64,000 nucleotides of DNA, from the NCBI GenBank assembly GCA_963813715.1, contig CAWFAK010000005.1:1376001-1440000 (forward strand). The letters are read 5' to 3'. The stretch's first letter is position 1. Every line of letters starts with the position of its first letter. The stretch is from an uncultured Planctomycetaceae bacterium. Its GTDB lineage: Bacteria > Planctomycetota > Planctomycetia > Planctomycetales > Planctomycetaceae. The translations under genes and the position numbers were made by a program. Below the pieces are notes generated by a model. It had not been told where the DNA came from and made no database searches. It worked only from the letters and a program-made list of their open reading frames with translations. Shown piece after piece: positions 15,498 through 51,721 of this stretch.

Positions 15498-16436
15498 ATG
15501 GACTTAACGAACCTTTTGCCTTGGGCCATTTTCGGCGTCATCACGTTCGGCGTGTGGGCGCTGATCAACGTCTTCTCGTCGCGATCCAGCCGGGCGATCG
15601 AGCGGCTCGAAGAGCTGCGCGATCCGACGCTGCGAAACCGCGAAGGCGGCGGTTCCGGCAAAACCGGCATGGGCGCCGTCGTTGAAATGGCCGCCCCCGC
15701 CCTGTCGAAAGCTCTGCAACCCAAGACCGAGCTCGAGCAAAGCGAACTCAAAAAGCGGATGGCCAACGCCGGCTACAACGCCCCCGGCGCTGCCCAGCTC
15801 TTCCTGGCGATCAAGTTCGCCATGATGATCGGCGGCTGCTTGCTGGGAAGCGGCTTCGGCCTCGTGCACTGGGGGATGACGCAGAAGGGCTGGACCTCGA
15901 TCATCGTCGGGGCCGGCATCGGCTTCTATCTGCCTGAACTGGTGCTCGCTTTGATGAAGCGGTCGCGGCAGGAGAAAATCTTCCTGCAGCTGCCGGATAC
16001 CCTGGACCTCTTGGTCGTCTGCGTGGAAGCCGGCTTGGGTCTCGACGCGGGCATGCGTCGCGTTTGCGACGAGCTGGTCGATTCGGCCCCGGAGCTCACG
16101 TCCGAATTCAACATGGCCAACAAGCAACTGCAAATGGGACGTCCCCGCCGCGAGGTCTTGCATGACCTGGGCGTGCGGACGGGCGTCGACGACATGCGGG
16201 CCCTGGCCGCCATTTTGATTCAGGCCGACAAGTTCGGCTCCTCGATCGCCCAGGCCCTCCGCGTCCAGTCCGACAGCATGCGAGTCAAACGCCGCCAGAT
16301 CGCCGAAGAGCGAGCCCAGCAAACGGCCGTGAAGATGATCTTCCCGCTGGTGCTCTTCATCTTCCCGGGCATCTTCGTGGTGCTGGTCGGCCCGGCCGCC
16401 ATCTCCATGATCAACGGCCTGCTCAAGAACGGCTGA
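15498..16436 (+). CDS. tadC: Tad pilus inner-membrane protein TadC
   Basis: LPDTLDLLVVCVEAGLGLD, KMIFPLVLFIFP. Confidence 0.92.
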   Translation: MDLTNLLPWAIFGVITFGVWALINVFSSRSSRAIERLEELRDPTLRNREGGGSGKTGMGAVVEMAAPALSKALQPKTELEQSELKKRMANAGYNAPGAAQLFLAIKFAMMIGGCLLGSGFGLVHWGMTQKGWTSIIVGAGIGFYLPELVLALMKRSRQEKIFLQLPDTLDLLVVCVEAGLGLDAGMRRVCDELVDSAPELTSEFNMANKQLQMGRPRREVLHDLGVRTGVDDMRALAAILIQADKFGSSIAQALRVQSDSMRVKRRQIAEERAQQTAVKMIFPLVLFIFPGIFVVLVGPAAISMINGLLKNG

Positions 16437-16459
16437 CGCCCGCCACAACTCTCCAAACG

Positions 16460-16490
16460 AAAAACACTGGCCCCGGCCAGTGTTTTTTTT
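16460..16490 (+). terminator. Intrinsic terminator after tadC
   Basis: AAAAACACTGGCC-CC-GGCCAGTGTTTTTTTT hairpin with T run. Confidence 0.85.
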
Positions 16491-16550
16491 GATCCCGTCC
16501 CGACCGCCTATTGCGTGCGCGGCTCCTTGATTCTGACGAACTCACTCTTC

Positions 16551-16615
16551 CCCCCTCGCCCCTTGCGGGAGAGGGGTCGGCCTGCGACGAGCTCAGTCGA
16601 GCCGGGGTGAGGGGC
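16551..16615. repeat. REP-like palindromic element (CCCCTC...GAGGGG type)
   Basis: CCCCCTCGCCCCTTGCGGGAGAGGGG...GGGGTGAGGGGC, a nested inverted repeat. Confidence 0.6.
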
Positions 16616-16674
16616 CCCTTTTCGATCCCGTCCCAATCGACGCGTCCCGTCCGGTTCGCGTCCCGTCCCGTGTC

Positions 16675-16758
16675 CACCACGAAGGCACAAAGGACCAAGG
16701 AATTCGAATCTGCTGACTTAGGATCTTGCTTCGTGCCTTCGTGTCTTTGTGGTGAAAA
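16675..16758. repeat. Inverted-repeat element (CACCACGAAGGCACAAAG...CTTCGTGCCTTCGTGTCTTTGTGGTG)
   Basis: Imperfect long inverted repeat in the intergenic region. Confidence 0.55.
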
Positions 16759-17047
16759 TCTCCGTGAGCTTGTCATCCCGCCTCACAGATTGTGACCGGA
16801 CCGGACCGGACCCGATCCCGTCGCGTCTCTCTCTATCTCTGACCTTGGACCTTGGACTTACTCGAGTCCCGTCCCGTCTAGCAGAGCAGTCCGGACCCGG
16901 ACCCCTGCTCGCGAAAGTGTCCGGACCGGACCTTTTGACCGGTCCCGTCCCCAGTTGGCGTGTCCCGACCGAGAGGTCGCGGATCAAATTCGCCGGGATT
17001 CGCTCGGTAAAACAACGTGTCCCGGGCTTTGCACAATGGAACGCATT

Positions 17048-18331
17048 TTAGCCGATCTGTTGTGCAATTCTCAGATTCGTTGTGCAGACCGGGGCGGCGG
17101 CGAAATCGGGCTGAATCCCAAGCTCGTGCATCGCTCCGATCAGCACGCAAAGGTTGTGACAGAGGATTTTGCAGAGCACTTCGTTCTTCATCGCCAGCTT
17201 GGTCCGGCTGCGAACGGCGTCCCCGAACTTGGTTTTGATCGACATGAAACAGGCTTCGATGTTAGACCGCTTGTGGTAATGCCGCAGGAACTCCTCCCGG
17301 TGCAGGCTGAAGTAGTGGAACGCCTTGGCGTAGAGCCCGCCGACCGCCCCGGTCGTGCCGGCCCGGAACGGGATGTACGCGGTCGCCTTGTGTTTCGCAA
17401 TCGCTTCAAAATTGGCCGTACTGGCGTACTGTCGGTCTGCTGAAACTTCCGACACGTCGAAGTTCTTCGCGGTCTCGTCCAAGAGCGCGGGCAAGAGCGG
17501 ACTGTCGTTCGTGCAGCGCTCGTGAATCTCGACGGCGGTCACGACGTGGTCGTGCAGCCGATCATCACGTGGGTTTTTACCCAGTCGGTTTCCTTCCGCT
17601 CGCCACCGCACGGGCCGTACTTGTGGTCGTACCAGCGATGGAATCGGCTGGCCGTGAATCCCGTTGAATCTGCGGCGAAATCGCTCTCAATCGCGGTAAG
17701 CGGCAGGCTGGCTTTGACGATCAACTCGCGCAAGAACGTCCGTCATGCGTTCATCGTCAAGGCGATTGAAGATCGAGTTGAAGTGCGGGACGCAGCCGAT
17801 GTGCCCCTTGGCGTGGCATCCGCAGGTCCGACATGAACCGCCGGCCGCTCAGCGTGGAGAACACCTTGAAGCAGACCGCGAACACGGCGTCACGCATCGG
17901 GATGCGGCGCTGTCCGCGCCCTCTTGCGATTCCTCTTCGATCCCTTCACACAACGCAGCCAAGAGCGATTGGAACGTATCCTTCTCGCTGGTCTGGGCGC
18001 GGTTGTACGCGGGCCACTGCTGCGGATAGCTCTTGCGGACGATCTTCTCTTCGACGGTCACGCTTTCCGTGATCGTCTCGCTTCCGTCCGCGAACAATTC
18101 CCTTTGTCGCACGATCCGAACGGCCAAGATGTGTTTGCAGGTACAGCCGCGTAACTCGAAATCGGGGCAAGTGCAGTGAGGCGACTGGTCGTCAGGATCG
18201 ACCTTGTACCGCTTCTCACCCGGCAACGATTGAGACGAGACGTACCATTGGTTCCCGATCTGCACGATCTTCTGCGTTGCCGCCAAGATCAGTGCGCGAT
18301 TCTCGCGATCCAGCAACTTCCAATCGGTCAT
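17048..18331 (-). pseudogene. Transposase with N-terminal SWIM zinc finger and IS4/IS5-type DDE domain; 4 or more frameshifts (decay or sequencing error)
   Basis: CTCPDFELRGCTCKH (SWIM), AADSTGF (D1), SADRQY (D2), YHKRSNIEACFMSIK (Y-x2-R-x3-E-x6-K). Split over ORFs 17849..18331, 17539..17733 and 17048..17611. Confidence 0.88.
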
Positions 18332-18377
18332 GGCCGCTTCCCCTACAGGATGCGGCGCGACGGGTTAAAATGTCCGA

Positions 18378-18448
18378 CAAGGGGCATTCGGGCCGTTCAC
18401 GCCTGAGTGCTTCGGCCCGTCGTAGCTCGAACTACGGCGGGCTTTTTT
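18378..18448 (+). ncRNA. Candidate ~70-nt two-hairpin RNA antisense to the transposase leader
   Basis: TAAAAT at 18366-18371. Hairpin GGGGCATTCGGGC/GCCTGAGTGCTTC (18381-18413, G-U pairs work on the + strand). Hairpin GCCCGTCGTAG/CTACGGCGGGC followed by T6. Confidence 0.5.
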
Positions 18449-18477
18449 GTTCCCGGTTCTAAAATGAACCAGTCGGT

Positions 18478-18527
18478 TTGACACCGTTACTATCCGTCAC
18501 TATACTACACTATCCGATGCTAGTCAA
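18478..18527. promoter_or_regulatory. Overlapping divergent sigma70 promoters for the ATPase (+) and transposase (-)
   Basis: + strand TTGACA(18478)-17 nt-TATACT(18501). - strand TTGACT(18527)-17 nt-TATAGT(18504). ACTATCCG occurs twice within. Confidence 0.75.
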
Positions 18528-18553
18528 CTCTAATTGCTCTGGAGGGCGAGGGC

Positions 18554-19807
18554 ATGCCTCTTTCCAAATCCGACTTGCAAACCAAGGCGCTTCAGCTCGG
18601 GCAGATTTTCAAACCGGCATCGCCAATCGATCAGGAGGATCTGTTTTGCGGGCGGCAAACCCAGATCCGCAACGTCGTAGACGCGATCAACCAGACCGGT
18701 CAGCACGTAATCATGTACGGCGAGCGGGGCGTGGGGAAAACTTCGCTGGCCAACGTGCTGGTATCGAAGCTTCGCGCTGGCAACCGCGTGATCGTGGCTC
18801 CGCACGTCAACTGCGACAACGGCGATGACTATGCCTCGATTTGGAGAAAGGTGTTCTCGGAAATCACTGTTATCTCGGAGAAGCGGTCGCCGGGATTTGT
18901 GGCCAAGATCGAGAAAACGGTGGGCTGTCTAGCGGATCAAATCAAGGGGCACATCACCCCGGATTCCGTCAGGAAGCTCCTAACGAGTGTCGGCGAGAAC
19001 TCCATGCTTCTCGTAATTCTCGACGAGTTCGACAAAATTCCGAAAAAAAATGTTCGCAGTCTGGTCGCAGACACCATTAAGGTGCTGTCGGACCGCGCTA
19101 CTCCGTCAACGATTGTCGTAGTCGGGTTTGCTGACGACGTTAACGGACTGATCGAAGAACACCAATCGATTGAACGGTGCCTAGTCCAGGTTCCAATGCC
19201 GCGCATGTCTCCAGTGGAACTCGAAATGATTGTAACCAACGGCCTCAAGCGCGTCGGCATGACGATCGACCAGGATGCCCTTCAGGAAATCTCGGGACTC
19301 TCTAAAGGGCTGCCTCACTACACCCATCTAATCAGCCTGCATTGCGCAAGGCGAGCGCTCGATTCCGGAACGCTGGCGATCACACCCGACCATGTAAAGG
19401 CCGCGGTTCGCGAGGCGATCACGGAGACGCAGCAGACCATTAAAAGCACGTATAACGAAGCAACTCTGAGCACGAAGAAAAATGCCCTATATCGGCAAGT
19501 GCTTCTTGCCTGCGCGATGACTGACGCGGACGACTTTGGCTACTTCGCTCCGATCGACGTGCGTGAACCGCTTAGTCGGGTGTTGAAAAAACCCTCAAAG
19601 ATTGAGGCGTTCGCAAAACACCTGCATGCGTTTTGCGAGGACAAACGCGGACCCGTGCTAAAAAAGATGCCGGATCGATCCAGGTTCCGTTTCATGAACC
19701 CACTCATGCAGCCTTTCATTCTGATGAAGGGGCTAAAGGACGATCTTGTGACCGAAGACGATTTGGGCCTGAAGCGTGATCCAAAGGCGGAAGGCAAATT
19801 GTTTTAG
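18554..19807 (+). CDS. AAA+ ATPase, Orc1/Cdc6-like (possible C-terminal winged helix), transposon passenger
   Basis: LFCGRQTQI, GERGVGKTS (Walker A), VILDEFD (Walker B), SIER, GLPHY. Confidence 0.85.
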   Translation: MPLSKSDLQTKALQLGQIFKPASPIDQEDLFCGRQTQIRNVVDAINQTGQHVIMYGERGVGKTSLANVLVSKLRAGNRVIVAPHVNCDNGDDYASIWRKVFSEITVISEKRSPGFVAKIEKTVGCLADQIKGHITPDSVRKLLTSVGENSMLLVILDEFDKIPKKNVRSLVADTIKVLSDRATPSTIVVVGFADDVNGLIEEHQSIERCLVQVPMPRMSPVELEMIVTNGLKRVGMTIDQDALQEISGLSKGLPHYTHLISLHCARRALDSGTLAITPDHVKAAVREAITETQQTIKSTYNEATLSTKKNALYRQVLLACAMTDADDFGYFAPIDVREPLSRVLKKPSKIEAFAKHLHAFCEDKRGPVLKKMPDRSRFRFMNPLMQPFILMKGLKDDLVTEDDLGLKRDPKAEGKLF

Positions 19808-19838
19808 CCGCCCGGAAGCGGCAAGGGAGCATGCGGGC

Positions 19839-20291
19839 ATGATCGAAAAGCAGCTTTTGACGGCGGTCATCGTCCCCGTCGGGATTTTGGTCGTCACCGT
19901 CGTCTGCAAGTGCCTCATCCGAATGAGTTGGCCCAGGCTGACGGATTTTTACATGGGAATCGACGCGATGATGGCCGCCATCGCGTCGGGACTGATTTAC
20001 TTGTGCGATCTGGGCTATCAATATCGCGACGCAAAAAAAACCGTCGACCCAAAGGACAGGGCCGACCAGCTGGATCTCATTGCAAAGCACGCCTTCTACG
20101 GGATCGGATACTGTGTTGCCGTTGCGGTTTTTCTGTTCTTTTTGTTGCTTTTTCACCAGCGTTACGAAGCCCTAAAATTGCAGGGGAAAACGCCTAAATT
20201 CTGGAGTTGGATGAATTTTCTTATCTTGGTGATCTGCAATGGGATAGGCTTTGGTTGGCTGTTCGCAATCGTGTACTTTATCACCGGCTGA
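19839..20291 (+). CDS. Four-TM hypothetical membrane protein, transposon passenger
   Basis: Four hydrophobic segments; starts 31 nt after the ATPase stop; visibly AT-richer codons than host genes. Confidence 0.75.
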   Translation: MIEKQLLTAVIVPVGILVVTVVCKCLIRMSWPRLTDFYMGIDAMMAAIASGLIYLCDLGYQYRDAKKTVDPKDRADQLDLIAKHAFYGIGYCVAVAVFLFFLLLFHQRYEALKLQGKTPKFWSWMNFLILVICNGIGFGWLFAIVYFITG

Positions 20292-20360
20292 GCTTGACAG
20301 TCCGATATAATGATTGCCGAGTCATTCCCATTCAGTCCGCCAACTCGCGGGCATTTCCTT

Positions 20361-20585
20361 ATGACCCAAAACGCAGAATCCACCAAGACGCGAACCGCGG
20401 AAGTGATCGCATGTACCGCTGCCGCGAGCGGCGTTGCGCTCGGAATTGCGTCGGCAGTTACCGTTTCGATTCCACTGGTTGCCGCCGCCGCTGGCCTCGG
20501 TCTTATTGGCGTCGCCGGCGAGTACTACGCTCAGCGCACGCCTGCAGGCACAGCGGTCCAGTCGGAGGGCAAGCCGCGCTCTTGA
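20361..20585 (+). CDS. Small Ala/Gly-rich membrane peptide (74 aa), transposon passenger
   Basis: MTQNAESTKT...GVALGIASAVTVSIPLVAAAAGLGLIGVAG; followed by a terminator. Confidence 0.55.
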   Translation: MTQNAESTKTRTAEVIACTAAASGVALGIASAVTVSIPLVAAAAGLGLIGVAGEYYAQRTPAGTAVQSEGKPRS

Positions 20586-20605
20586 GTCGCGGAAGATCGA
20601 TGCAT

Positions 20606-20634
20606 GACCGCTCCGCTAGGGGCGGTTTTTTTTT
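20606..20634 (+). terminator. Intrinsic terminator
   Basis: ACCGCTCC-GCTA-GGGGCGG followed by T9. Confidence 0.75.
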
Positions 20635-20672
20635 GCGCCGCCCACGTCCCCCTCTCCCGGTACAATCGCGGC

Positions 20673-21413
20673 ATGAGCCGTAAACGCCGCTTGGTCCGAG
20701 TTGCGGTTTGCGCAGCCGTGCTGATCGCCTACGTGGGCGGATACTTCGTCTGGCCTCACGGTGAATTAGCTACCTTCGGGGATTTCTATCGCAGCTTCCC
20801 CTTGGAAGGACTCAACCGGCTCTACGTTCCGCTGGGCTGGCTAGAGTGCAAGATACGGGGGCGCACGGTAACCCTAAGCGGTCCGACCCCAGGTCACGGC
20901 ATCCAGTTCGATCCGGGCACTCTGGTAATTCGCGCTCGTTCCGTTGTGCAGCCGGGCGTTCTGTTGTGCAGAACCGTCCCGTTGTGCAAAGCCACGTGTC
21001 CCGTCCCGTTCTTGTCCTCTCCCGGGGCGCCGCGACCCTTCCCCTCGGTGTTTCCCCCTAGCTGCTGGTGGGGATCTTTTTCTCCCTTATGTGAAAACGG
21101 ATCCCCACCCCCAGCAGGGACAGTTTTTGATCACCCGCGAGGATTCTCCCGTCACCGCGCCGCCGCGATCGCGCAGGTGTCCGGACCGGACTTCGGGAAC
21201 CACCCAGCCCCAGAACCGGATGCCGAACTTGGTCTCACTGGGTGTCCAGGGGGCCTGCGCGGTGAACTGGGGCTCCGCGCCGTCTCGGCGCGGCACCTAA
21301 ACCGCTCGCGCGATCCCGCTCTTTCCATTCAGCCACAAAACCGCGATCCGTCCAAGATCAGTTTTCGCGGAATTCAGGATCGGCTACGCCACAGCTCGGC
21401 GCGGAGCGTTTGA
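20673..21413 (+). CDS. Small single-TM protein whose frame runs out through the right TIR (true 3' end uncertain)
   Basis: MSRKRRLVRVAVCAAVLIAYVGGYFVW...LYVPLGWLE. TACAAT lies 6 nt before the ATG. No stop inside the element. Confidence 0.5.
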   Translation: MSRKRRLVRVAVCAAVLIAYVGGYFVWPHGELATFGDFYRSFPLEGLNRLYVPLGWLECKIRGRTVTLSGPTPGHGIQFDPGTLVIRARSVVQPGVLLCRTVPLCKATCPVPFLSSPGAPRPFPSVFPPSCWWGSFSPLCENGSPPPAGTVFDHPRGFSRHRAAAIAQVSGPDFGNHPAPEPDAELGLTGCPGGLRGELGLRAVSARHLNRSRDPALSIQPQNRDPSKISFRGIQDRLRHSSARSV

Positions 21414-21469
21414 CTTTTGTCTCCTCGGTTCCCGCGTCCCCATGCACTGCCGATAGTCCCGAAGGCTTC

Positions 21470-22120
21470 TTACTTTGACGCATTCTTCGCCACGATTCGA
21501 TGCGCGACGCACGCGACGTCGTCGCATCGGTCAATCGCCCGCTCGACAAGCTCGTAAAGCTCCTTCCACTTGATCACATCGAAGGCGTCGAGGCGGCCGT
21601 CGAACAGCTGCGTCAGAACCCGATGATGGATGGCGTCGCCCTCTTCCTCGGCGTGATGCGTCACGATCACCAACTGGTCGACGGACATGGCGAGTTTCGC
21701 GGACTTACGGTCCTCGATGTGCCGGATACACATGACGGCATCGGAAGCAAGGCGGCTGGCTTTCACGAGAACGGCGCACTGCCGCACGAATTCGTCCTCA
21801 CTTCTCGCGACTTTGTAAAAGATCATTCGTCGACCGACGGCGTCGATGTCATCGACCACGTCGTCGATTCGCGAAACCAGGTCGTAGACGTCTCCGCGAT
21901 CAGCAGGCGAAAAGTTGCTCCGGGCGAGTCGAGCGAATGTTTCCCGCGCGAGTTCGTCGCCGTCGTGTTCAGCTTGGATGATGGCGGTGACCAGCTCACT
22001 GGTGATGAGGTCTGCGGAGCACGCTAAGTCCGCAAGCAGCTCGGCTGAGCGCACGGCGTTTTGCGCCGCACGCTCGAAGGCATCGCAATAGTCGAGGTAG
22101 TTAGGCAGCAAGCGAAACAT
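21470..22120 (-). CDS. DUF47 / PhoU-like phosphate transport regulator
   Basis: EHDGD...IDDVVD...EEEGDAIH...IKWKELYELVERAIDRCDDVA. Confidence 0.88.
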   Translation of the reverse strand: MFRLLPNYLDYCDAFERAAQNAVRSAELLADLACSADLITSELVTAIIQAEHDGDELARETFARLARSNFSPADRGDVYDLVSRIDDVVDDIDAVGRRMIFYKVARSEDEFVRQCAVLVKASRLASDAVMCIRHIEDRKSAKLAMSVDQLVIVTHHAEEEGDAIHHRVLTQLFDGRLDAFDVIKWKELYELVERAIDRCDDVACVAHRIVAKNASK

Positions 22121-22145
22121 GCGTTGCCTCGAAACTGGGCGTCAC

Positions 22146-25100
22146 TCAACCAGGGATTGGCGGCCGCGCCTCCTCCAACTTGTTCGGCACCACAAGCGAG
22201 TAGACGCACGGCACCACGAACAGCGTCGTCACCAGACCCGCGATCAGGCCGCCGAGGACCGCGCGGCCCAAGGGGACGTTCGCTTCGCTGCCGCGGCTCA
22301 GACCCAGCGACATCGGGATCAGGGCGAAGAACGTCGCCAGCGCCGTCATGACCACCGGCCGCACCCGGACCGAGGCGGCGCCGTCGATCGCCTCGAGCGG
22401 AGTCACCCGGTCCGCCTGCCGCACGTTCTCGGCGAAGTCGATCAGCAGCACCGTGTTCGACACCACGATGCCCACCATGAAGATGACGCCCAGCAGCGAC
22501 TGGACGTTCAAGGCCGTTCCGGTGAAGAACAGCATCAAGATGACGCCGACCACGCCGACCGGCACGGCCGACAGCACCACCAGCGGCGTCAGGTACGACC
22601 GGAACAGGGCGACCATCAGGAAGTAGATCAGCAGAACCGCCCCGACCATGCCCATCGCCTGGAATCGGAACGTCTGCTGCATCTTCTGATACTCGCCGGC
22701 CAGGACGATCCGGGCCCCTTCCATCGGCTTCTGTCCGGGCGCGTCGGGATCGAAGGGCGTCCAGCCGCCGTCGGGCCGCTCCTTGCCGAACTTCGCCACG
22801 ACCCGGCTCACGTCCTCGGCCACGTGCCCGAGGTCGCGGCCGTGCACCCCCATCGTCAGATCCATCGTCGCCTGAAGGTTGGTGTGGTTGATCTCGGCCG
22901 GCACTTCGACTCGCGGCAGTGGACTTCACGATGTTCCGCAGCGGGATCGGCTTCTGCTGCCCGGGCCGGTGATCGGGATGTCGAGCAGGGTATCGACGCG
23001 AGGTGATGTCTTCTTCGGGGTACTGCACGCCGACGAAGTACTGGTTGGAGCTCTTCGGGTCGATCCAGAAGTTCTTCTTGTTGAACTGAACGCTGGAGTT
23101 GAACGCCGACACGACGTTCTGCATCATGTCCGCCTGAGTCGAGCCCGAGGTCGGACGCCTTGGCCTGGTCGATTTCCAGGACGTACTGCGGGTAGTCGAG
23201 GCGCTGGATGATGCGGGCGTCCACGACGCCGTCGATCCGCTTCACTTCCTTCAGAATTCGCTCGGCCACCTTGCGGGCCTTGTTCATGTCCTTGCCCGTG
23301 ATGCGGACGTTGATCGGAGTGGACTTGCCCTCGTTCATGGCCGACCGGACCATGCCGCCGGCGTCGAAGGCGAATTCCAGGTCGGAGAACTGCGGATCGG
23401 CCGCGAATCCCTGCCGCAAGCATGTCGACGTACTCCTGGGCCGACTGCGACCGCTCGGTCTTGAGTTGAACCTTCACGACCGCGTCCATCGGCCCGGCGT
23501 TCGGCGTGAAGGCGGCCGACCAGTTCGGCGTCAGCCCGATCTCGCTGATGACCAGTTCCAGGTCGTCGCCAGTCTTCTCCTTCACGAATTTCTCCGACGC
23601 GGCGATCTTCTCCTCGGTCTCTTCGATCCGCGTGCCGGACGGGGCCCGGACGAAGATCTCGAACGCGCCGGCATCGACTTCCGGGAAGAACTCCCGGCGC
23701 AGGTCTGGGCCGAAGCACAACGACGACCACGGCCAGGGCCGCGAACGCCGCCGCCGATCACGAAGCCGCGAGCTCGCAGGCCACGTCGAGGAGCCGGAGT
23801 ATAACGCGCGATCCCGGCGATCGACGCGACTTCCCATTTCTCGAACAGCCGGCCGAGCCAGCCCTTTGCGGGGCGTTCTCGTGTTCGTTGCGGTGCTCGT
23901 AGTCGAAGGTGTGGGACTCGACCGGCTTGTGCCCGTGCGACTTCAGCCAGGCCGCACAGCGGGCCGGGACGAACGTCCGCGACAGGACGTAGGCGATCGC
24001 CATGGCGAACGCCACGGCCAGGAACATCGGCCGGAACAGGAACGCCCCGAGCCCGGGCATCAGCGCCAGCGGCAGCAGCACGAGCAGCGTGCAGAGCTGG
24101 CGATCAGTTCGGGCATGGCCACCTCGCTGGCCCCGAGGAAGGCGGCCTCCTTCGGCTTCGCCCCGAGGCCGAGGTGGCGGTGCGTGTTCTCCAGGCAAAT
24201 GATCGCGCTATCCACCAGCGGGCCGATCGCCAGGGCCAGCCCGGCCAGAGTCATCACGTTGATCGTCTGCCCGAAGCCGTACAGGCAGGCGATCGGCCCC
24301 GAGCACGGCAACCGGGATCGTCATCACGGCGATCAGCGTCATCCGCCATTCGCCGAGGAAGACCAGGATCACCAGCGAGCAGAGGATGGCGCCGAGGATG
24401 CCTTCTTCGGCGAGGCTTTCGATCGCCTTGCGGACGTAGACCGACTGGTCCATCACCAGTTTCAGATCGACGTCCGGGGTGGTCAGCCGGTCCTTCATGT
24501 CGGGCAGGTTCTGTCTTGAGAGTGTCGACGACGCTCAGCGTGCTGTACCCCGACTGCCGGTAGACCGGGATGTAGACCTGCCGGCGGCCGTCCACGCGGA
24601 CGACGTTCGTTTGAATCGGGGCGGCGTCCTTCGGGTCGGCCACCTCTTTCAGGAAGATCGTCCGCCCGTCCGCGTCGGTCTTGATCGGGAATGTCGCCCA
24701 TGCGCTCGACGCGCGTCGTACATCGCGTTGGAGTCGAGCGTGTAGTCGAACTTGCCGAACTTCGCGTCGCCGGCCGGGATGAAGATGTTGAACCGGTCCA
24801 GGGCATTCATCACATCGATCGGGGACAGGCCGTGGGCCTGGAGCTCGGTCGCGGTCGAGGTAGGCCAGGATGGTGCGAATCTTCCCGCCGTAGACGACCG
24901 GGGCGTTCGCCCCGCGCGACGCCATGATCATCATCCGGACCTGGTAGCGGGCGGTGTCGTAGAGGACCGATTCGTTCTGCGTCTTGCTGTTGAGGGCGAC
25001 CAGGCAGACCGGCGTGGACGAGGTCGGGTCGTAGGGCAGGATGACCGGCGGCAGCGTTCCCGGGGGCAGGGTCGGGATTTCGACGGTGGCCAGCGAGTTG

Positions 25101-48987: not shown

Positions 48988-51721
48988 TTAGTGATTGAAC
49001 AAGAACTCGTTGCTGCTCAGCACGCTCCAGTAGAGATCCTCGATCGCCTTGCGGCGGGCGCGGACCGACTCGGCGGGAATCTCGCGAACCCGCTTTTCGA
49101 CCGCAGCGACGGCTTGCTGACGTGCGGCCGGATCCTTGATCGCAATCGCCGCGGCAATGCGACTTTGAACGTCGGCCAGCGCCGGCAGGCGATCGCTGTC
49201 TTCCACTTGGGCGAGGGCCGCCGTCAATTTCTGCCGCTCCGACGCCGTCGGCAACCGCGACAAGGCGGCCAGATACAAATCTTCGACGACGGCTCCATCG
49301 TCCGCCGCCAGCAGGTGATCGATGCGATTGCCGCTCGCCTCGATCTTGGCGTTGAGCGTGTTGCCGTTCGTGAGGTGCAGCACCTGCGACATGCTGGGTT
49401 CGTTGGAGCGCTCGCACTCGCACGTGATCAATCGCTCCGGGCGGCCGAAGACGCCGAGGAAGTACGAGTCGGCCTCCGAGTCGGCCAGCTGCGAGCGCCC
49501 GCGTGCCGGTCGGCTGTCCCTTGAACGTCGTGGGCGAGCCGGTGACTTGCGAAAGAGCGTCCAGCAACACTTCGGCCTTCAGACGCCGCGGCAAGAATCG
49601 CGAATAGAACCGCTCGTCCCCTTCGTTGCCGGTCCGGGTGGCGCTCGAGCGTTGATAGGTGGCGGAGATGAGGATCTGCCGCATCAGCGATTTCAGGTCG
49701 TAACCGTTTTTCGCCAGGTCGTCGGCAAGCGCCGTCAACAGGGGCGCGTTGCTGGGCGGGTTGGTCAATCGCATGTCGTCGACCGCCTCGACGAGCCCGC
49801 GCCCGAAAAAGTTGGCCCAGACGCGATTGACGATCGAGCGGCTGAAGTACGGGTTCTTCGGATCGGTCAGCCAGTCGGCCAACACGGCGCGTCGATCGGC
49901 CGTCGCCCCGAGGGCGATCGGTGCCGCGTCGAGCGGCCGCGGAGACTGCGGATGGCCGGTCCGCGGCTGGATCAGGTCGCCGCTATCCGCGACGAAGATA
50001 ATGCGACTGTCGTCGCCGTCCTTGCCGCGGACGCGCGCGAACAGGTTGGCCATCCCGTAATAGTCGTCGTTGGTCCACTTCTCGAGCGGGTGGTCGTGGC
50101 AATGAGCGCACTGAATCGACATGCCGAGGAAGGCCATCGAGACCGTTTCCGCCATCTCCTGCGGATCCTCGTGCATGGCGTAGAAGTTTGCCGCCCCGTT
50201 TTCCGTCGTGCTGCCACGGGACGTGACGATCTCGCGCACGAACTTGTCCCAGGGCTCGTCGTCGGCGACGCGCTTGCGGATCCAGTTGGAGAAAGACTTC
50301 ACGCCGCTGGGCCGCAAGCGGGCCGCGGACACCAGGAGCAAGTCGGACCACTTCGCCGACCAGTAATCGACGAACTCGGGACGGGCCAGCAGGTCGTCGG
50401 CCAATCGCACGCGTTTGTCGGGCCGGCGATCCGCGAGAAAGGCCCGCGCCTGGTCGGCCGTCGGCAAGAGGCCGATCGTGTCGAGGCTCGCGCGACGCAG
50501 AAAGTCGGCGTCGGAACAAAGCGGCGACGGCGGAATGTTCAGCCGCTCGAGCTTCGTCAGCACCAGGTCGTCGATCACATTGCGGCGGTCGGCCTTGGTA
50601 AACGTGTCGGCGGCGAGTCGCGTGTCGTAGGGAACCTGCACCGTGCCCAAAACGGTTTTGCTCAGATACCAGGCGCTGATCGAGCCTTCGCCGTTGCCGG
50701 TGATCTTCACCTTTCCGACGTCGTCCACCTGGCAGACGGTTTGATTGGTGGAGGTGAACTTGGCCCAGGTGGTCACGTCTTCGGTATGGCCGTCGTTGAA
50801 ATGGGCCAGGATCAACACCTGTTGCTCGTCCCCCTTTTTGAGCACCAGGTCTTCGGGGACGATTTCGAGACGTTCGATCCGCGGATCGCTGGGCATGGGA
50901 GCCGGCTGGCCCGCGGCGATCCATTCGGCCAGCACGCGATACTCGTGCGAGTCGACCTGGAATCGCAGGCCGCCCTTGTGCGGAATCGCGCCCGACGGTT
51001 TGAGCAGGACCAGGCTCCGCCCCGGATCGCTCGGCACGATCCGGCGTCCACCGGCTTGCCGCGTAATCGCCAAAAAGTCGGCCGGCGGATCGTATCCGCG
51101 AAGCGACAACTTGAAGCCGTTCTTCCCCGCGGTCGCTCCGTGGCAGGCCCCCGAGTTGCAACCGGCTTTCGTCAGCACCGACTGGACGTGATTGCGAAAG
51201 CTCCAAGACTCATCGATCTTTTGACGCTCGACCGTCACTTCGATTTGCGCGGTCTGCTCGTGCCAGCGGGCTTGAATCGTCGCTTTGCCGTCGCCGACGG
51301 GAATCGCGACGGAGTTGCTCACCCGCACGACCTTCGGGTTGCTCGAGTTGAAAACCACGCCTTGCGTTGCCTGCCCGATCCAACGGCCCTGCAGCCGTCG
51401 CTCGACGACGAGGGCCTGCCGCGCCTTGGGACCGTGCAAAACCATCGCGTGCGGCAGGATGGCTAGCGACTCGCCGCTAGCGGCGGCCGTCGCGGGCGAG
51501 AGAGGCTCCGCACCGTGCGCCACGAGGGCCGCGGTCAACACAAGGACCGCGAGAGCGCCGCGCGTGAGAATCCACTTCAGACCAACAGTAAATGGGTGGC
51601 ACTGGCGGCTTGTCCGCCAGTGTCTTATTCCCGGGCTCGAACGCAGATCACTGGCGGGCAAGCCGCCAGTGCCACCCGGAAGTGGCTGCGTTCTCCCGAA
51701 TGCGATCGTAAAGCGGTTCAT
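48988..51721 (-). CDS. DUF1549/DUF1553 protein with Ig-like domains, frameshift near 49495; start uncertain
   Basis: CNSGACHG, FLRRASLD, CAHCHDHP, NRVWANFFGRG, RRLKAEVLLD, CECER, EFLFNH. Confidence 0.88.
51594..51677. repeat. REP doublet at or inside the 5' end of the DUF1549 gene
   Basis: GGGTGGCACTGGCGG...CCGCCAGTGCCACCC, 84 bp. Confidence 0.8.

Follow-up and report, generated by a model that had tools for sequence, protein, structure and literature searches.

A stretch of 64,000 nucleotides from the genome of an uncultured Planctomycetaceae bacterium (in the following: the window) very probably contains a unit transposon of 3,969 bp at positions 17025-20993, i.e. a transporter insertion sequence (tIS) with passenger genes. 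It belongs to a large family, here called SWIM-DDE, that is related to the IS903-type branch of the IS5 family and whose transposase joins an N-terminal SWIM zinc finger to a DDE catalytic domain. The window corresponds to positions 1376001-1440000 of contig C5 in a genome assembly (G000) of 7.49 Mb, which comprises 18 contigs and is 82.6% complete. A preliminary description had proposed a delimited transposon of about 4 kb at this place, and this was confirmed in three ways: by a second copy in the same genome, by the TCCC continuation of the target in other genomic repeats, and by metagenome contigs of the empty site.

Boundaries, empty site and target of the element

The surroundings of the element, about 5 kb that look non-coding and are rich in dispersed repeats, are bounded by a Tad-type secretion gene (15498-16436) and an opposite-strand gene (21470-22120). 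It starts with GGCTTTGCACAATGGAACG and ends with the reverse complement of GGCTTTGCACAACGGGACG, 17 of the 19 positions being matched (89% complementary), and an exact duplication of ACGTGTCCCG abuts both ends. The imperfect 19-bp inverted ends and the exact 10-bp duplication named in the preliminary description are both present. The inverted ends alone are no better than chance, as the same 5 kb contain an equally good 19-nt pair (I1). Nor is the duplication decisive by itself, as the 10-mer belongs to a dispersed repeat and has 104 occurrences in the genome, both strands counted.

The empty site was found in public soil metagenomes. We compared window positions 16400-21600 with four runs (X1, X2, X3 and X5; X1 and X5 stem from different studies), which contain small shares of the 64,000-nt stretch (at most 0.16). 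One contig of X1 and one of X5 join position 17014 directly to 20994, skipping 3,979 bases (3,969 + 10), with 10 letters that fit either side. The X5 contig (296 nt) follows 16834-17014 with 0 differences and 20994-21108 with 2, and the X1 contig (510 nt) follows 16594-17014 with 2 differences and extends 89 nt past the joint. Paralogues of the flanks within the genome are at most 86-92% alike over no more than 115 nt; the two contigs therefore represent the same locus without the element. An allele with a single ACGTGTCCCG, which the preliminary description had named as a check, exists, and the whole element inserted as one unit. No empty-site joint was detected in runs X2 or X3. Other joints in the run contigs were ignored, their sides being short (20-44 nt) and located within repeats.

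In the second copy of the element (C17:678431-~682190), the left end is the same, the right end is degenerate yet recognisable, and the 10-mer of the window flanks both sides. A third right end of the window's type, at C4:50618, abuts this 10-mer as well. All three ends lie at the same position of a repeat, between ...GGTGAAACAACGTGTCCCG and TCCCG, the insertion point being AACAACGTGTCCCG followed by TCCCG. This target is a dispersed intergenic repeat with the consensus ...TTTTCTCGGTGAAACAACGTGTCCCGTCCCG... (window 16985-17024; other copies, for example, at C5:641346 and C16:393840). The 19-mer of the left flank has 111 matches in the genome at up to 3 mismatches, of which 95 continue with TCCC and 2 with the element; the right flank of the window element, after the second 10-mer, continues with TCCC like the 95. 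These 95 repeat copies are paralogous empty sites. The element inserts at one fixed position of a genome repeat, a finding that goes beyond the claims of the preliminary description. In eight repeat copies, the end of an unrelated insertion sequence (IS) (starting AATGGCACTAAC, with an IS4-like transposase of 451 aa) is located five bases further on.

The intergenic region with the element (16437-21469) is a synteny breakpoint when compared with G002, the closest relative, whose left gene is 96% identical. There, homology ends just past the left gene, and the two flanks are 343 kb apart on the same contig (G002:C9:36141 and G002:C9:379695). In another relative, G003, they are separated by megabases.

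Transposase, end design and related elements

In the window, the transposase gene consists of three minus-strand open reading frame (ORF) pieces. SWIM (PF04434, 28.2 bits) and DDE_Tnp_1 (PF01609, 51 bits) are located on separate pieces, and the gene is therefore broken. An intact copy of 428 aa is encoded on contig C17, with 87% DNA identity to the window gene over 1,329 aligned bases. Alignment to this copy reveals frame-changing indels near 17918, 17820, 17815, 17733 and 17551-17556, in addition to a compensated pair at 17170-17174. Judged from this alignment, the window transposase is a pseudogene, unless some of the indels were introduced by the assembly. At 17918, 17731 and 17547, the "intact" state is present in X1 and X3 contigs that stem from related copies; being only 90-95% alike, these contigs are not decisive. 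Programmed frameshifting was considered and rejected, given some five separate indel sites relative to the intact paralogue.

In the intact protein, SWIM occupies residues 42-71, and the DDE domain extends over 218-395 (PF01609, 70.5 bits). The SWIM motif CxCx9CxH (C53, C55, C65, H67) is invariant in an alignment of 33 family members, as are D222, D300 and E360 together with Y353, R356 and K367 (Y-2-R-3-E-6-K). The same DDE and YREK motifs can be read in the broken pieces of the window. The combination of N-terminal SWIM and YREK-type DDE domain, originally ascribed to the window gene, is hence confirmed on the C17 paralogue, whereas the window gene itself is a multiply frameshifted pseudogene. 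An AlphaFold model of the intact protein (predicted local distance difference test score 79.5) shows a small beta-beta-beta-alpha N-terminal unit, a disordered linker (83-101), a helical region (106-212) and an RNase-H-like core, in this order. For the core, the best structural matches were Tn5 transposase (template modelling score 0.39-0.44) and ISCth4. Searching solved structures by sequence yielded nothing relevant for the transposase (a ribosomal protein only, E 0.66). Some family members (P0372, P0376, P0379 and P0391) match the family profile only from about profile position 94 on and have a different N-terminal part of 130-160 residues instead of SWIM, which suggests a swap of the DNA-binding head within the family.

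One search of genome contigs retrieved 17 homologous loci from metagenome-assembled genomes (MAGs) titled Planctomycetaceae, Pyrinomonadaceae, Acidobacteriaceae, Alphaproteobacteria and Frigoriglobus. Element boundaries could be set in 13 of these loci, giving 16 elements in all; every one of them has a transposase gene of its own, either intact or broken. All 16 start with GGCTTTG or a one-base variant, all carry cargo, and their lengths range from 2,697 to 6,172 bp; a bare element of about 1.4-1.5 kb was not among them. GGCTTTG-type ends, target duplications and variable cargo, for which the preliminary description had suggested examining homologous loci, are present in these elements. The duplication is an exact 9 bp in 14 of the 16, 8 bp in L011 and 9 bp with a mismatch in L015. 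The 10 bp of the preliminary description are exact in the window and recur in its paralogue, but they are exceptional for a family in which 9 bp is usual. A single genome contains one 2.7-kb element in three copies (L007, L008 and L013), each between a different duplication, which indicates that a unit with cargo has moved recently.

The two ends differ in design. At the right end of the window element, counted from the tip inward, the 8-mer core TTGCACAA is found at positions 5, 23 and 43, all copies being direct; at the left end, the core at position 5 is followed by two inverted copies at 36 and 56. This layout (5/23/43 and 5/~37/~57, each element with its own core) is complete in 7 of 16 elements (window, L004, L005, L009, L011, L012 and L014a). 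Four more have the end with three direct copies (L014b, L016a, L016b and L017), and the 3+3 layout is partial in two (L015 and L003, the distal end of L003 having been left out of core scoring). Multiple transposase sites per end are also known from Tn7 and Mu.

According to our proposal, the helical region (~105-212), perhaps together with the N-terminal SWIM finger, would read the GGCTTTGCACAA tip and two further TTGTGCA(A/G) cores per end. The DDE domain (D222, D300, E360) would cut and join the ends as in IS903 and Tn5, and the DNA between the transposase module and the end with three direct repeats would be carried along. Since its transposase is broken, the window copy would move only in trans, if the intact 428-aa protein of C17 acts on its ends. 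Cargo could be exchanged through recombination within shared ends or through the use of orphan ends.

Tandem arrays in other genomes bear on target choice. In L014 (136-13601), three different elements are arranged head to tail, separated by CAGCCCTTTG and AGCCCTTTG, and in L016 (4579-11691) two elements are separated by ACCGGCTGG. Each of these elements has its own transposase and cargo, and the spacers are the same 9-10 bp. The arrays look as if newcomers had inserted into the duplicated target of a resident element, a pattern that such insertion would be expected to leave. For related elements of the same genus (G004, G008, G011 and others; 67-70% DNA identity), the tips were not found within the loci examined, and these elements add nothing on target choice.

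The family is large. Of 8,000 clusters scored in a word-index protein search, 5,735 matched at E<=0.001; identities within the best 120 are 55-86%, and most of these proteins have a length of 400-430 aa. An exhaustive profile search among representatives of 50%-identity clusters matched 1,828 at E<=1e-30, 5,431 at 1e-10 and 11,013 at 1e-3, the last number surely including other IS4/IS5 transposases. In the ESM Atlas, 17 clusters combine DDE_Tnp_1 and SWIM, most commonly from Acidobacteriota. The names given in the sources are generic ("transposase", "predicted nucleic acid-binding Zn finger protein", "SWIM zinc finger"). The distribution is patchy: 2 of 300 other sampled genomes of the phylum match at E<=1e-40, and 5 of 11 genomes of the same genus at the DNA level.

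Known systems and alternative readings

The closest known system is the IS903 group. Common to both are the DDE_Tnp_1 domain with Y-2-R-3-E-6-K, ends of the type GGC(T/G)TTG and a 9-bp duplication, which is the rule among the relatives, the window element having 10 bp; IS903 itself starts with GGCTTTG. GGC-starting ends are present in the window as well as in the relatives. In contrast, the identity is as low as 22-27% over residues ~105-394, and the SWIM-DDE proteins have an extra N-terminal SWIM part of about 100 residues. Their ends are asymmetric with three cores each, a layout absent from classical IS903-type ends, and the elements measure 2.7-6.2 kb with passengers, as opposed to one-gene ISs of about 1.05 kb. 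For comparison, an IS on an Alloyangia pacifica plasmid (locus L038, of the NF033579 type), which encodes one of the two control transposases named below, is about 1.06 kb long, with GGCGTTGTTGCAGAA ends, simple termini that lack the three-core design, and the 9-bp duplication GATCAATAT. Nine Paracoccus ISs of the IS903 group listed in Table 2 of PMC3281130 have 1,050-1,054 bp and 9-bp repeats.

As a rival reading, the window element could be an unexceptional representative of an IS group that ISfinder or TnCentral already lists with the same arrangement, in which case nothing about it would be new. GGC ends and 9-bp duplications do fit the IS903 group, and the best curated match is an IS5-family model of NCBIfam, NF033579. 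With 1,828 representatives at E<=1e-30, the family is so large that curators have plausibly met it. Moreover, passenger-carrying ISs are a recognised class in the account that PMC9330008 gives of tISs, whose passengers lie inside the IS ends and move with the element. The window element is such a tIS, with one transposase, terminal inverted repeats and passengers (18337-20936) moved as a unit. However, tIS is a structural label and not a lineage, and cargo seems to be the rule in the SWIM-DDE family (16 of 16) rather than an occasional derivative. NF033579 matches residues 137-395 only and, at 106.6 bits, stays below its cut-off of 140, whereas two classical IS5-family transposases used as controls reached 369.6 and 340.9 bits; none of the eight matching NCBIfam IS models attains its own cut-off. 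Among PLSDB plasmids, 0 of 637 matching records cover 80% of the protein, and the matches, 22-32% identical, start at residue 104 or later, leaving residues 1-104 unmatched. Source names are generic, and a literature search for prokaryotic elements combining SWIM with an IS4/IS5-type or other DDE transposase returned only papers on eukaryotic Mutator elements or irrelevant matches. We consider a catalogued IS group unlikely, and the initial notion of a poorly described family of single-transposase, cargo-carrying elements gains support from the same three observations (models below cut-off, generic names, no literature match). The catalytic part is, by sequence comparison, a distant relative of the IS903-type branch, and the first ~100 residues are without counterpart there.

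SWIM fingers are otherwise known from Mutator-like element (MULE) transposases, where the finger is C-terminal. Likenesses to MULEs are the SWIM finger with a DDE transposase, duplications of 9-10 bp and a tendency to carry captured genes. The differences lie in the catalytic domain, which is PF01609 (IS4/IS5 type) here instead of the MULE/IS256 type, and in the position of SWIM (42-71), which precedes the DDE domain. No MULE or IS256 model was among the matches of the intact transposase. The common SWIM finger, which PMC6446971 lists for many MULE clades, is most simply read as an independent recruitment of this domain.

Members of the Tn3 family have ends of about 38 bp, a 5-bp duplication and a resolvase with a res site, whereas the duplications of SWIM-DDE elements are 9-10 bp; neither a Tn3-type transposase nor a resolvase was detected in the window element or among 147 ORFs of 15 related elements. 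Tn7 and Mu have several transposase sites per end, comparable to the unlike ends with three repeated sites each in the window element, but their TnsB/MuA-type transposases are unrelated, and the same cargo scan disclosed no conserved Tn7- or Mu-type accessory ATPase or target selector in the elements. ISs that target repeats are known from the IS3 family, namely IS1397 and ISKpn1 in repetitive extragenic palindromic sequences. They resemble the window element in their fixed insertion position within a dispersed intergenic repeat and differ in their unrelated transposase family.

An improbable, still weaker alternative is that a 1.3-kb IS mobilised neighbouring DNA via a stray or solo end, or that the unit is a recombination product of two elements inserted in repeat copies. 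Indeed, the two copies in the genome have only the transposase module and the extreme right end in common, and all insertions are in a repeat able to support recombination. Orphan ends occur at C8:666445, C9:18024, C9:19145 and C16:110694, and the right end at C4:50618 is without transposase. The empty-site contigs, however, differ from the window by the entire 3,969 bp at once, and the duplication is clean. Relatives likewise have cargo-bearing units with perfect 9-bp duplications, including the thrice-inserted 2.7-kb element, and none of the 16 delimited elements is a bare IS. The same unit at several sites has been seen for L007/L008/L013, but not for the cargo of the window itself. That the inverted ends and the 10-mer are mere chance features of repeat-rich DNA around an old transposase fragment, as pair I1 and the abundance of the 10-mer could suggest, is refuted by the empty-site contigs, the identical ends on the second copy and the same terminal motif and duplication in 16 elements of other genomes, and deserves practically no credit.

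Several points weigh against the unit-transposon reading or parts of it. In assembled relatives the orthologous empty site was not readable, the left flanking gene being matched in 28 of 31 genomes. The duplication measures 10 bp here versus 9 bp in 14 of 16 relatives; all three ends have the same target, so that 10 bp could equally be 9 bp plus one extra terminal base. At 4 of the 17 homologous loci (L006, L010, L019 and L020) no pair of ends was found, and 3 of 16 elements (L007, L014c and L018) have the terminal core only, at a count allowing one mismatch. The transposase of the window copy is broken, so that any present-day activity would be hypothetical. Some of the frameshifts may stem from the assembly. 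The SWIM region is a putative binder of the subterminal repeats. Finally, PADLOC recognised no defence system in the window cargo, only weak P-loop matches (best 22.2 bits).

As to novelty, a DDE insertion sequence that carries passengers and an IS5-like catalytic domain are both already known. Compared with NCBIfam, PLSDB and the literature, it is the combination that seems undescribed: N-terminal SWIM, asymmetric 3+3 ends, cargo in every delimited member and sequence-directed insertion. We tentatively propose a wider view, which we regard as possible rather than probable. SWIM-DDE elements might be an undescribed, family-level IS4/IS5-type branch that comprises at least ~1,800 clusters (50% identity) and occurs mainly in Acidobacteriota and Planctomycetota of soil (one locus is from an alphaproteobacterial MAG). 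The branch would be characterised by obligatory cargo, by asymmetric ends whose six transposase sites are read with the help of a recruited SWIM finger, and by sequence-directed insertion (at one genome-repeat position here, repeatedly at the same 9-10 bp elsewhere, building tandem arrays of different cargo elements); it might be a main vehicle for toxin-antitoxin and conflict genes in these little-studied phyla. If the family is uncatalogued, annotation of soil metagenomes could turn thousands of "transposase" genes into elements with defined boundaries and cargo, recognisable by their GGCTTTG tips, cores at 5/23/43 and 5/37/57 and a 9-bp duplication. It would also provide a bacterial case of a SWIM finger with a DDE transposase, parallel to eukaryotic Mutator elements, and the fixed insertion point, together with the tandem arrays, suggests how addiction or defence genes come to be assembled into islands.

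Cargo genes and dispersed repeats

The features of the window element are compiled in Table 1. Relative to the other two copies, its private part comprises about 2.6 kb (18337-20936); unrelated cargo, as announced in the preliminary description, is present, but exceeds the 2.4 kb given there. The copy on C17 agrees with the window only in the transposase module of 1.31 kb (87% identity) and in some 60-70 nt at the extreme right end (80%), and its cargo differs. The variable cargo lies between the transposase module and the end with three direct cores. The G+C content of the window cargo is 53-57%, that of the flanks 62-66%.

Table 1. Features of the SWIM-DDE element in the window (positions refer to the 64,000-nt stretch)
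Feature	Position	Strand	Basis
Left copy of the 10-bp target-site duplication, ACGTGTCCCG	17015-17024	.	Sequence; empty-site joint from 17014 to 20994 with 10 letters common to both sides
Left terminal inverted repeat GGCTTTGCACAATGGAACG, adjoining the transposase stop codon	17025-17043	+	Inverted pair I2; same end at C17:678431 in the second copy
SWIM + DDE_Tnp_1 transposase pseudogene	17048-18331	-	ORF pieces, Pfam, alignment to the intact copy; hidden Markov model: two pieces with internal TGA
Subterminal 8-mer core in two copies, their orientation opposite to that of the terminal core (17029-17036): TTGTGCAA (17060-17067), TTGTGCAG (17080-17087)	17060-17087	+	Core count; positions 5/36/56 from the tip
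Terminator-like hairpin, 12 pairs then T run, between transposase start and cargo promoter	18414-18443	+	Consensus scan only
Overlapping divergent promoter-like sites: + TTGACA-17-TATACT (11/12) toward the cargo, - TTGACT-17-TATAGT (10/12) toward the transposase	18478-18527	.	Consensus scan only
Cargo gene 1, P-loop ATPase of 417 aa, nSTAND1 / Cdc6-like AAA type	18554-19807	+	PF20703, 52.9 bits (cut-off 27.1)
Cargo gene 2, hydrophobic protein of 150 aa, 0 families	19839-20291	+	ORF; membrane character read from sequence
Cargo gene 3, at most 91 aa, hydrophobic, no family above cut-off	20310-20585	+	ORF; Pfam and PADLOC scans
Terminator-like hairpin with T9 run, closing the three-gene cargo operon	20606-20627	+	Consensus scan
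Cargo gene 4, ORF behind TACAAT-N7-ATG, reading through the right end into the flank (stop 21413)	20673-20993	+	ORF list
Three direct core copies at the end far from the transposase stop: TTGTGCAG (20944-20951), TTGTGCAG (20964-20971), TTGTGCAA (20982-20989)	20944-20989	+	Repeat family D4; positions 5/23/43 from the tip
Right terminal inverted repeat	20975-20993	-	Inverted pair I2; related right ends at C4:50618 and C17:~682180
Right copy of the 10-bp target-site duplication, ACGTGTCCCG	20994-21003	.	Sequence and empty-site joint

The ATPase of cargo gene 1 has 4,483 relatives at E<=0.001, which form a large free-standing family and are named "Cdc6-like AAA superfamily ATPase" or "ATP-binding protein". 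Pfam gave nothing above cut-off for the small cargo ORFs, and a single weak paralogue of cargo gene 4, 40% identical over 69 aa, is located at C16:309819. The promoter-consensus scan found 4 sites versus 1.4 expected. An Rfam scan over 15500-22500 yielded a single match below threshold, anti-hemB (24.7 bits, gathering threshold 49.5), which we treated as chance. By analogy with the toxin-antitoxin and restriction-type cargo of its relatives, the window cargo may be a conflict or addiction module, which at present is a guess.

The cargo of the relatives was surveyed in the 147 ORFs of 15 elements mentioned above, the window being left out, as were L008 and L013 as copies of L007. Toxin-antitoxin genes encode PemK/MazF toxins (L011 and L015), HicB (L014b) and an MqsA-like antitoxin (L009). 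In addition, there are HTH_3 regulators (L014a, L014b, L014c and L017) and proteins with DUF488, DUF6471 and DUF6941; L018 contains fragments of an EcoRI-type methylase with GmrSD_N and a ParA-like ATPase. Nested ISs are of the IS3 family (L005 and L015) and the ISL3 family (L011). Most cargo ORFs of the relatives are without family. When all cargo ORFs were compared with one another, spurious ORFs that overlap the transposase gene dominated the result, and only one ORF was retained from it. This is a small zinc-ribbon ORF (RCxxCxHEW...PRVCPKCKSPxW) divergent from the transposase, found in L012 (6573-6836, minus strand), L014 (2905-3255, plus strand; element L014a) and L015 (4542-4763, minus strand), with tblastn traces in four more elements. 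The same position is taken by ribbon-helix-helix-like ORFs starting GRPKK or GKPKK in L003, L005 and L018, and by a DUF6471 protein in L004; the window copy is without a small divergent DNA-binding ORF. Such an ORF may encode a regulator or an accessory DNA-binding factor.

The four orphan ends on C8, C9 and C16 are of a sister type (GGCTTTGCACAAAAAC...), with no SWIM transposase nearby, and at C4:~49800-50618 the right end of the window's type is accompanied by three small genes. These loci could be non-autonomous or decayed elements. The motif CTCCCGGTACAATCGCGGCATG (TACAAT, 7 nt, ATG; window 20645-20675), which precedes cargo gene 4, is also found at C4:49816, C9:18877, C16:110092, C15:22630 and C12:422241, before unrelated small genes; it would seem to serve this genome as a common promoter of leaderless transcripts. 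Next to the right end of the element, at window positions 21061-21115, a repeated hairpin (GCTGCTGGTGGGGATC...GATCCCCACCCCCAGC, inverted pair I5) is found that recurs at about 30 other places and represents a separate dispersed repeat family.

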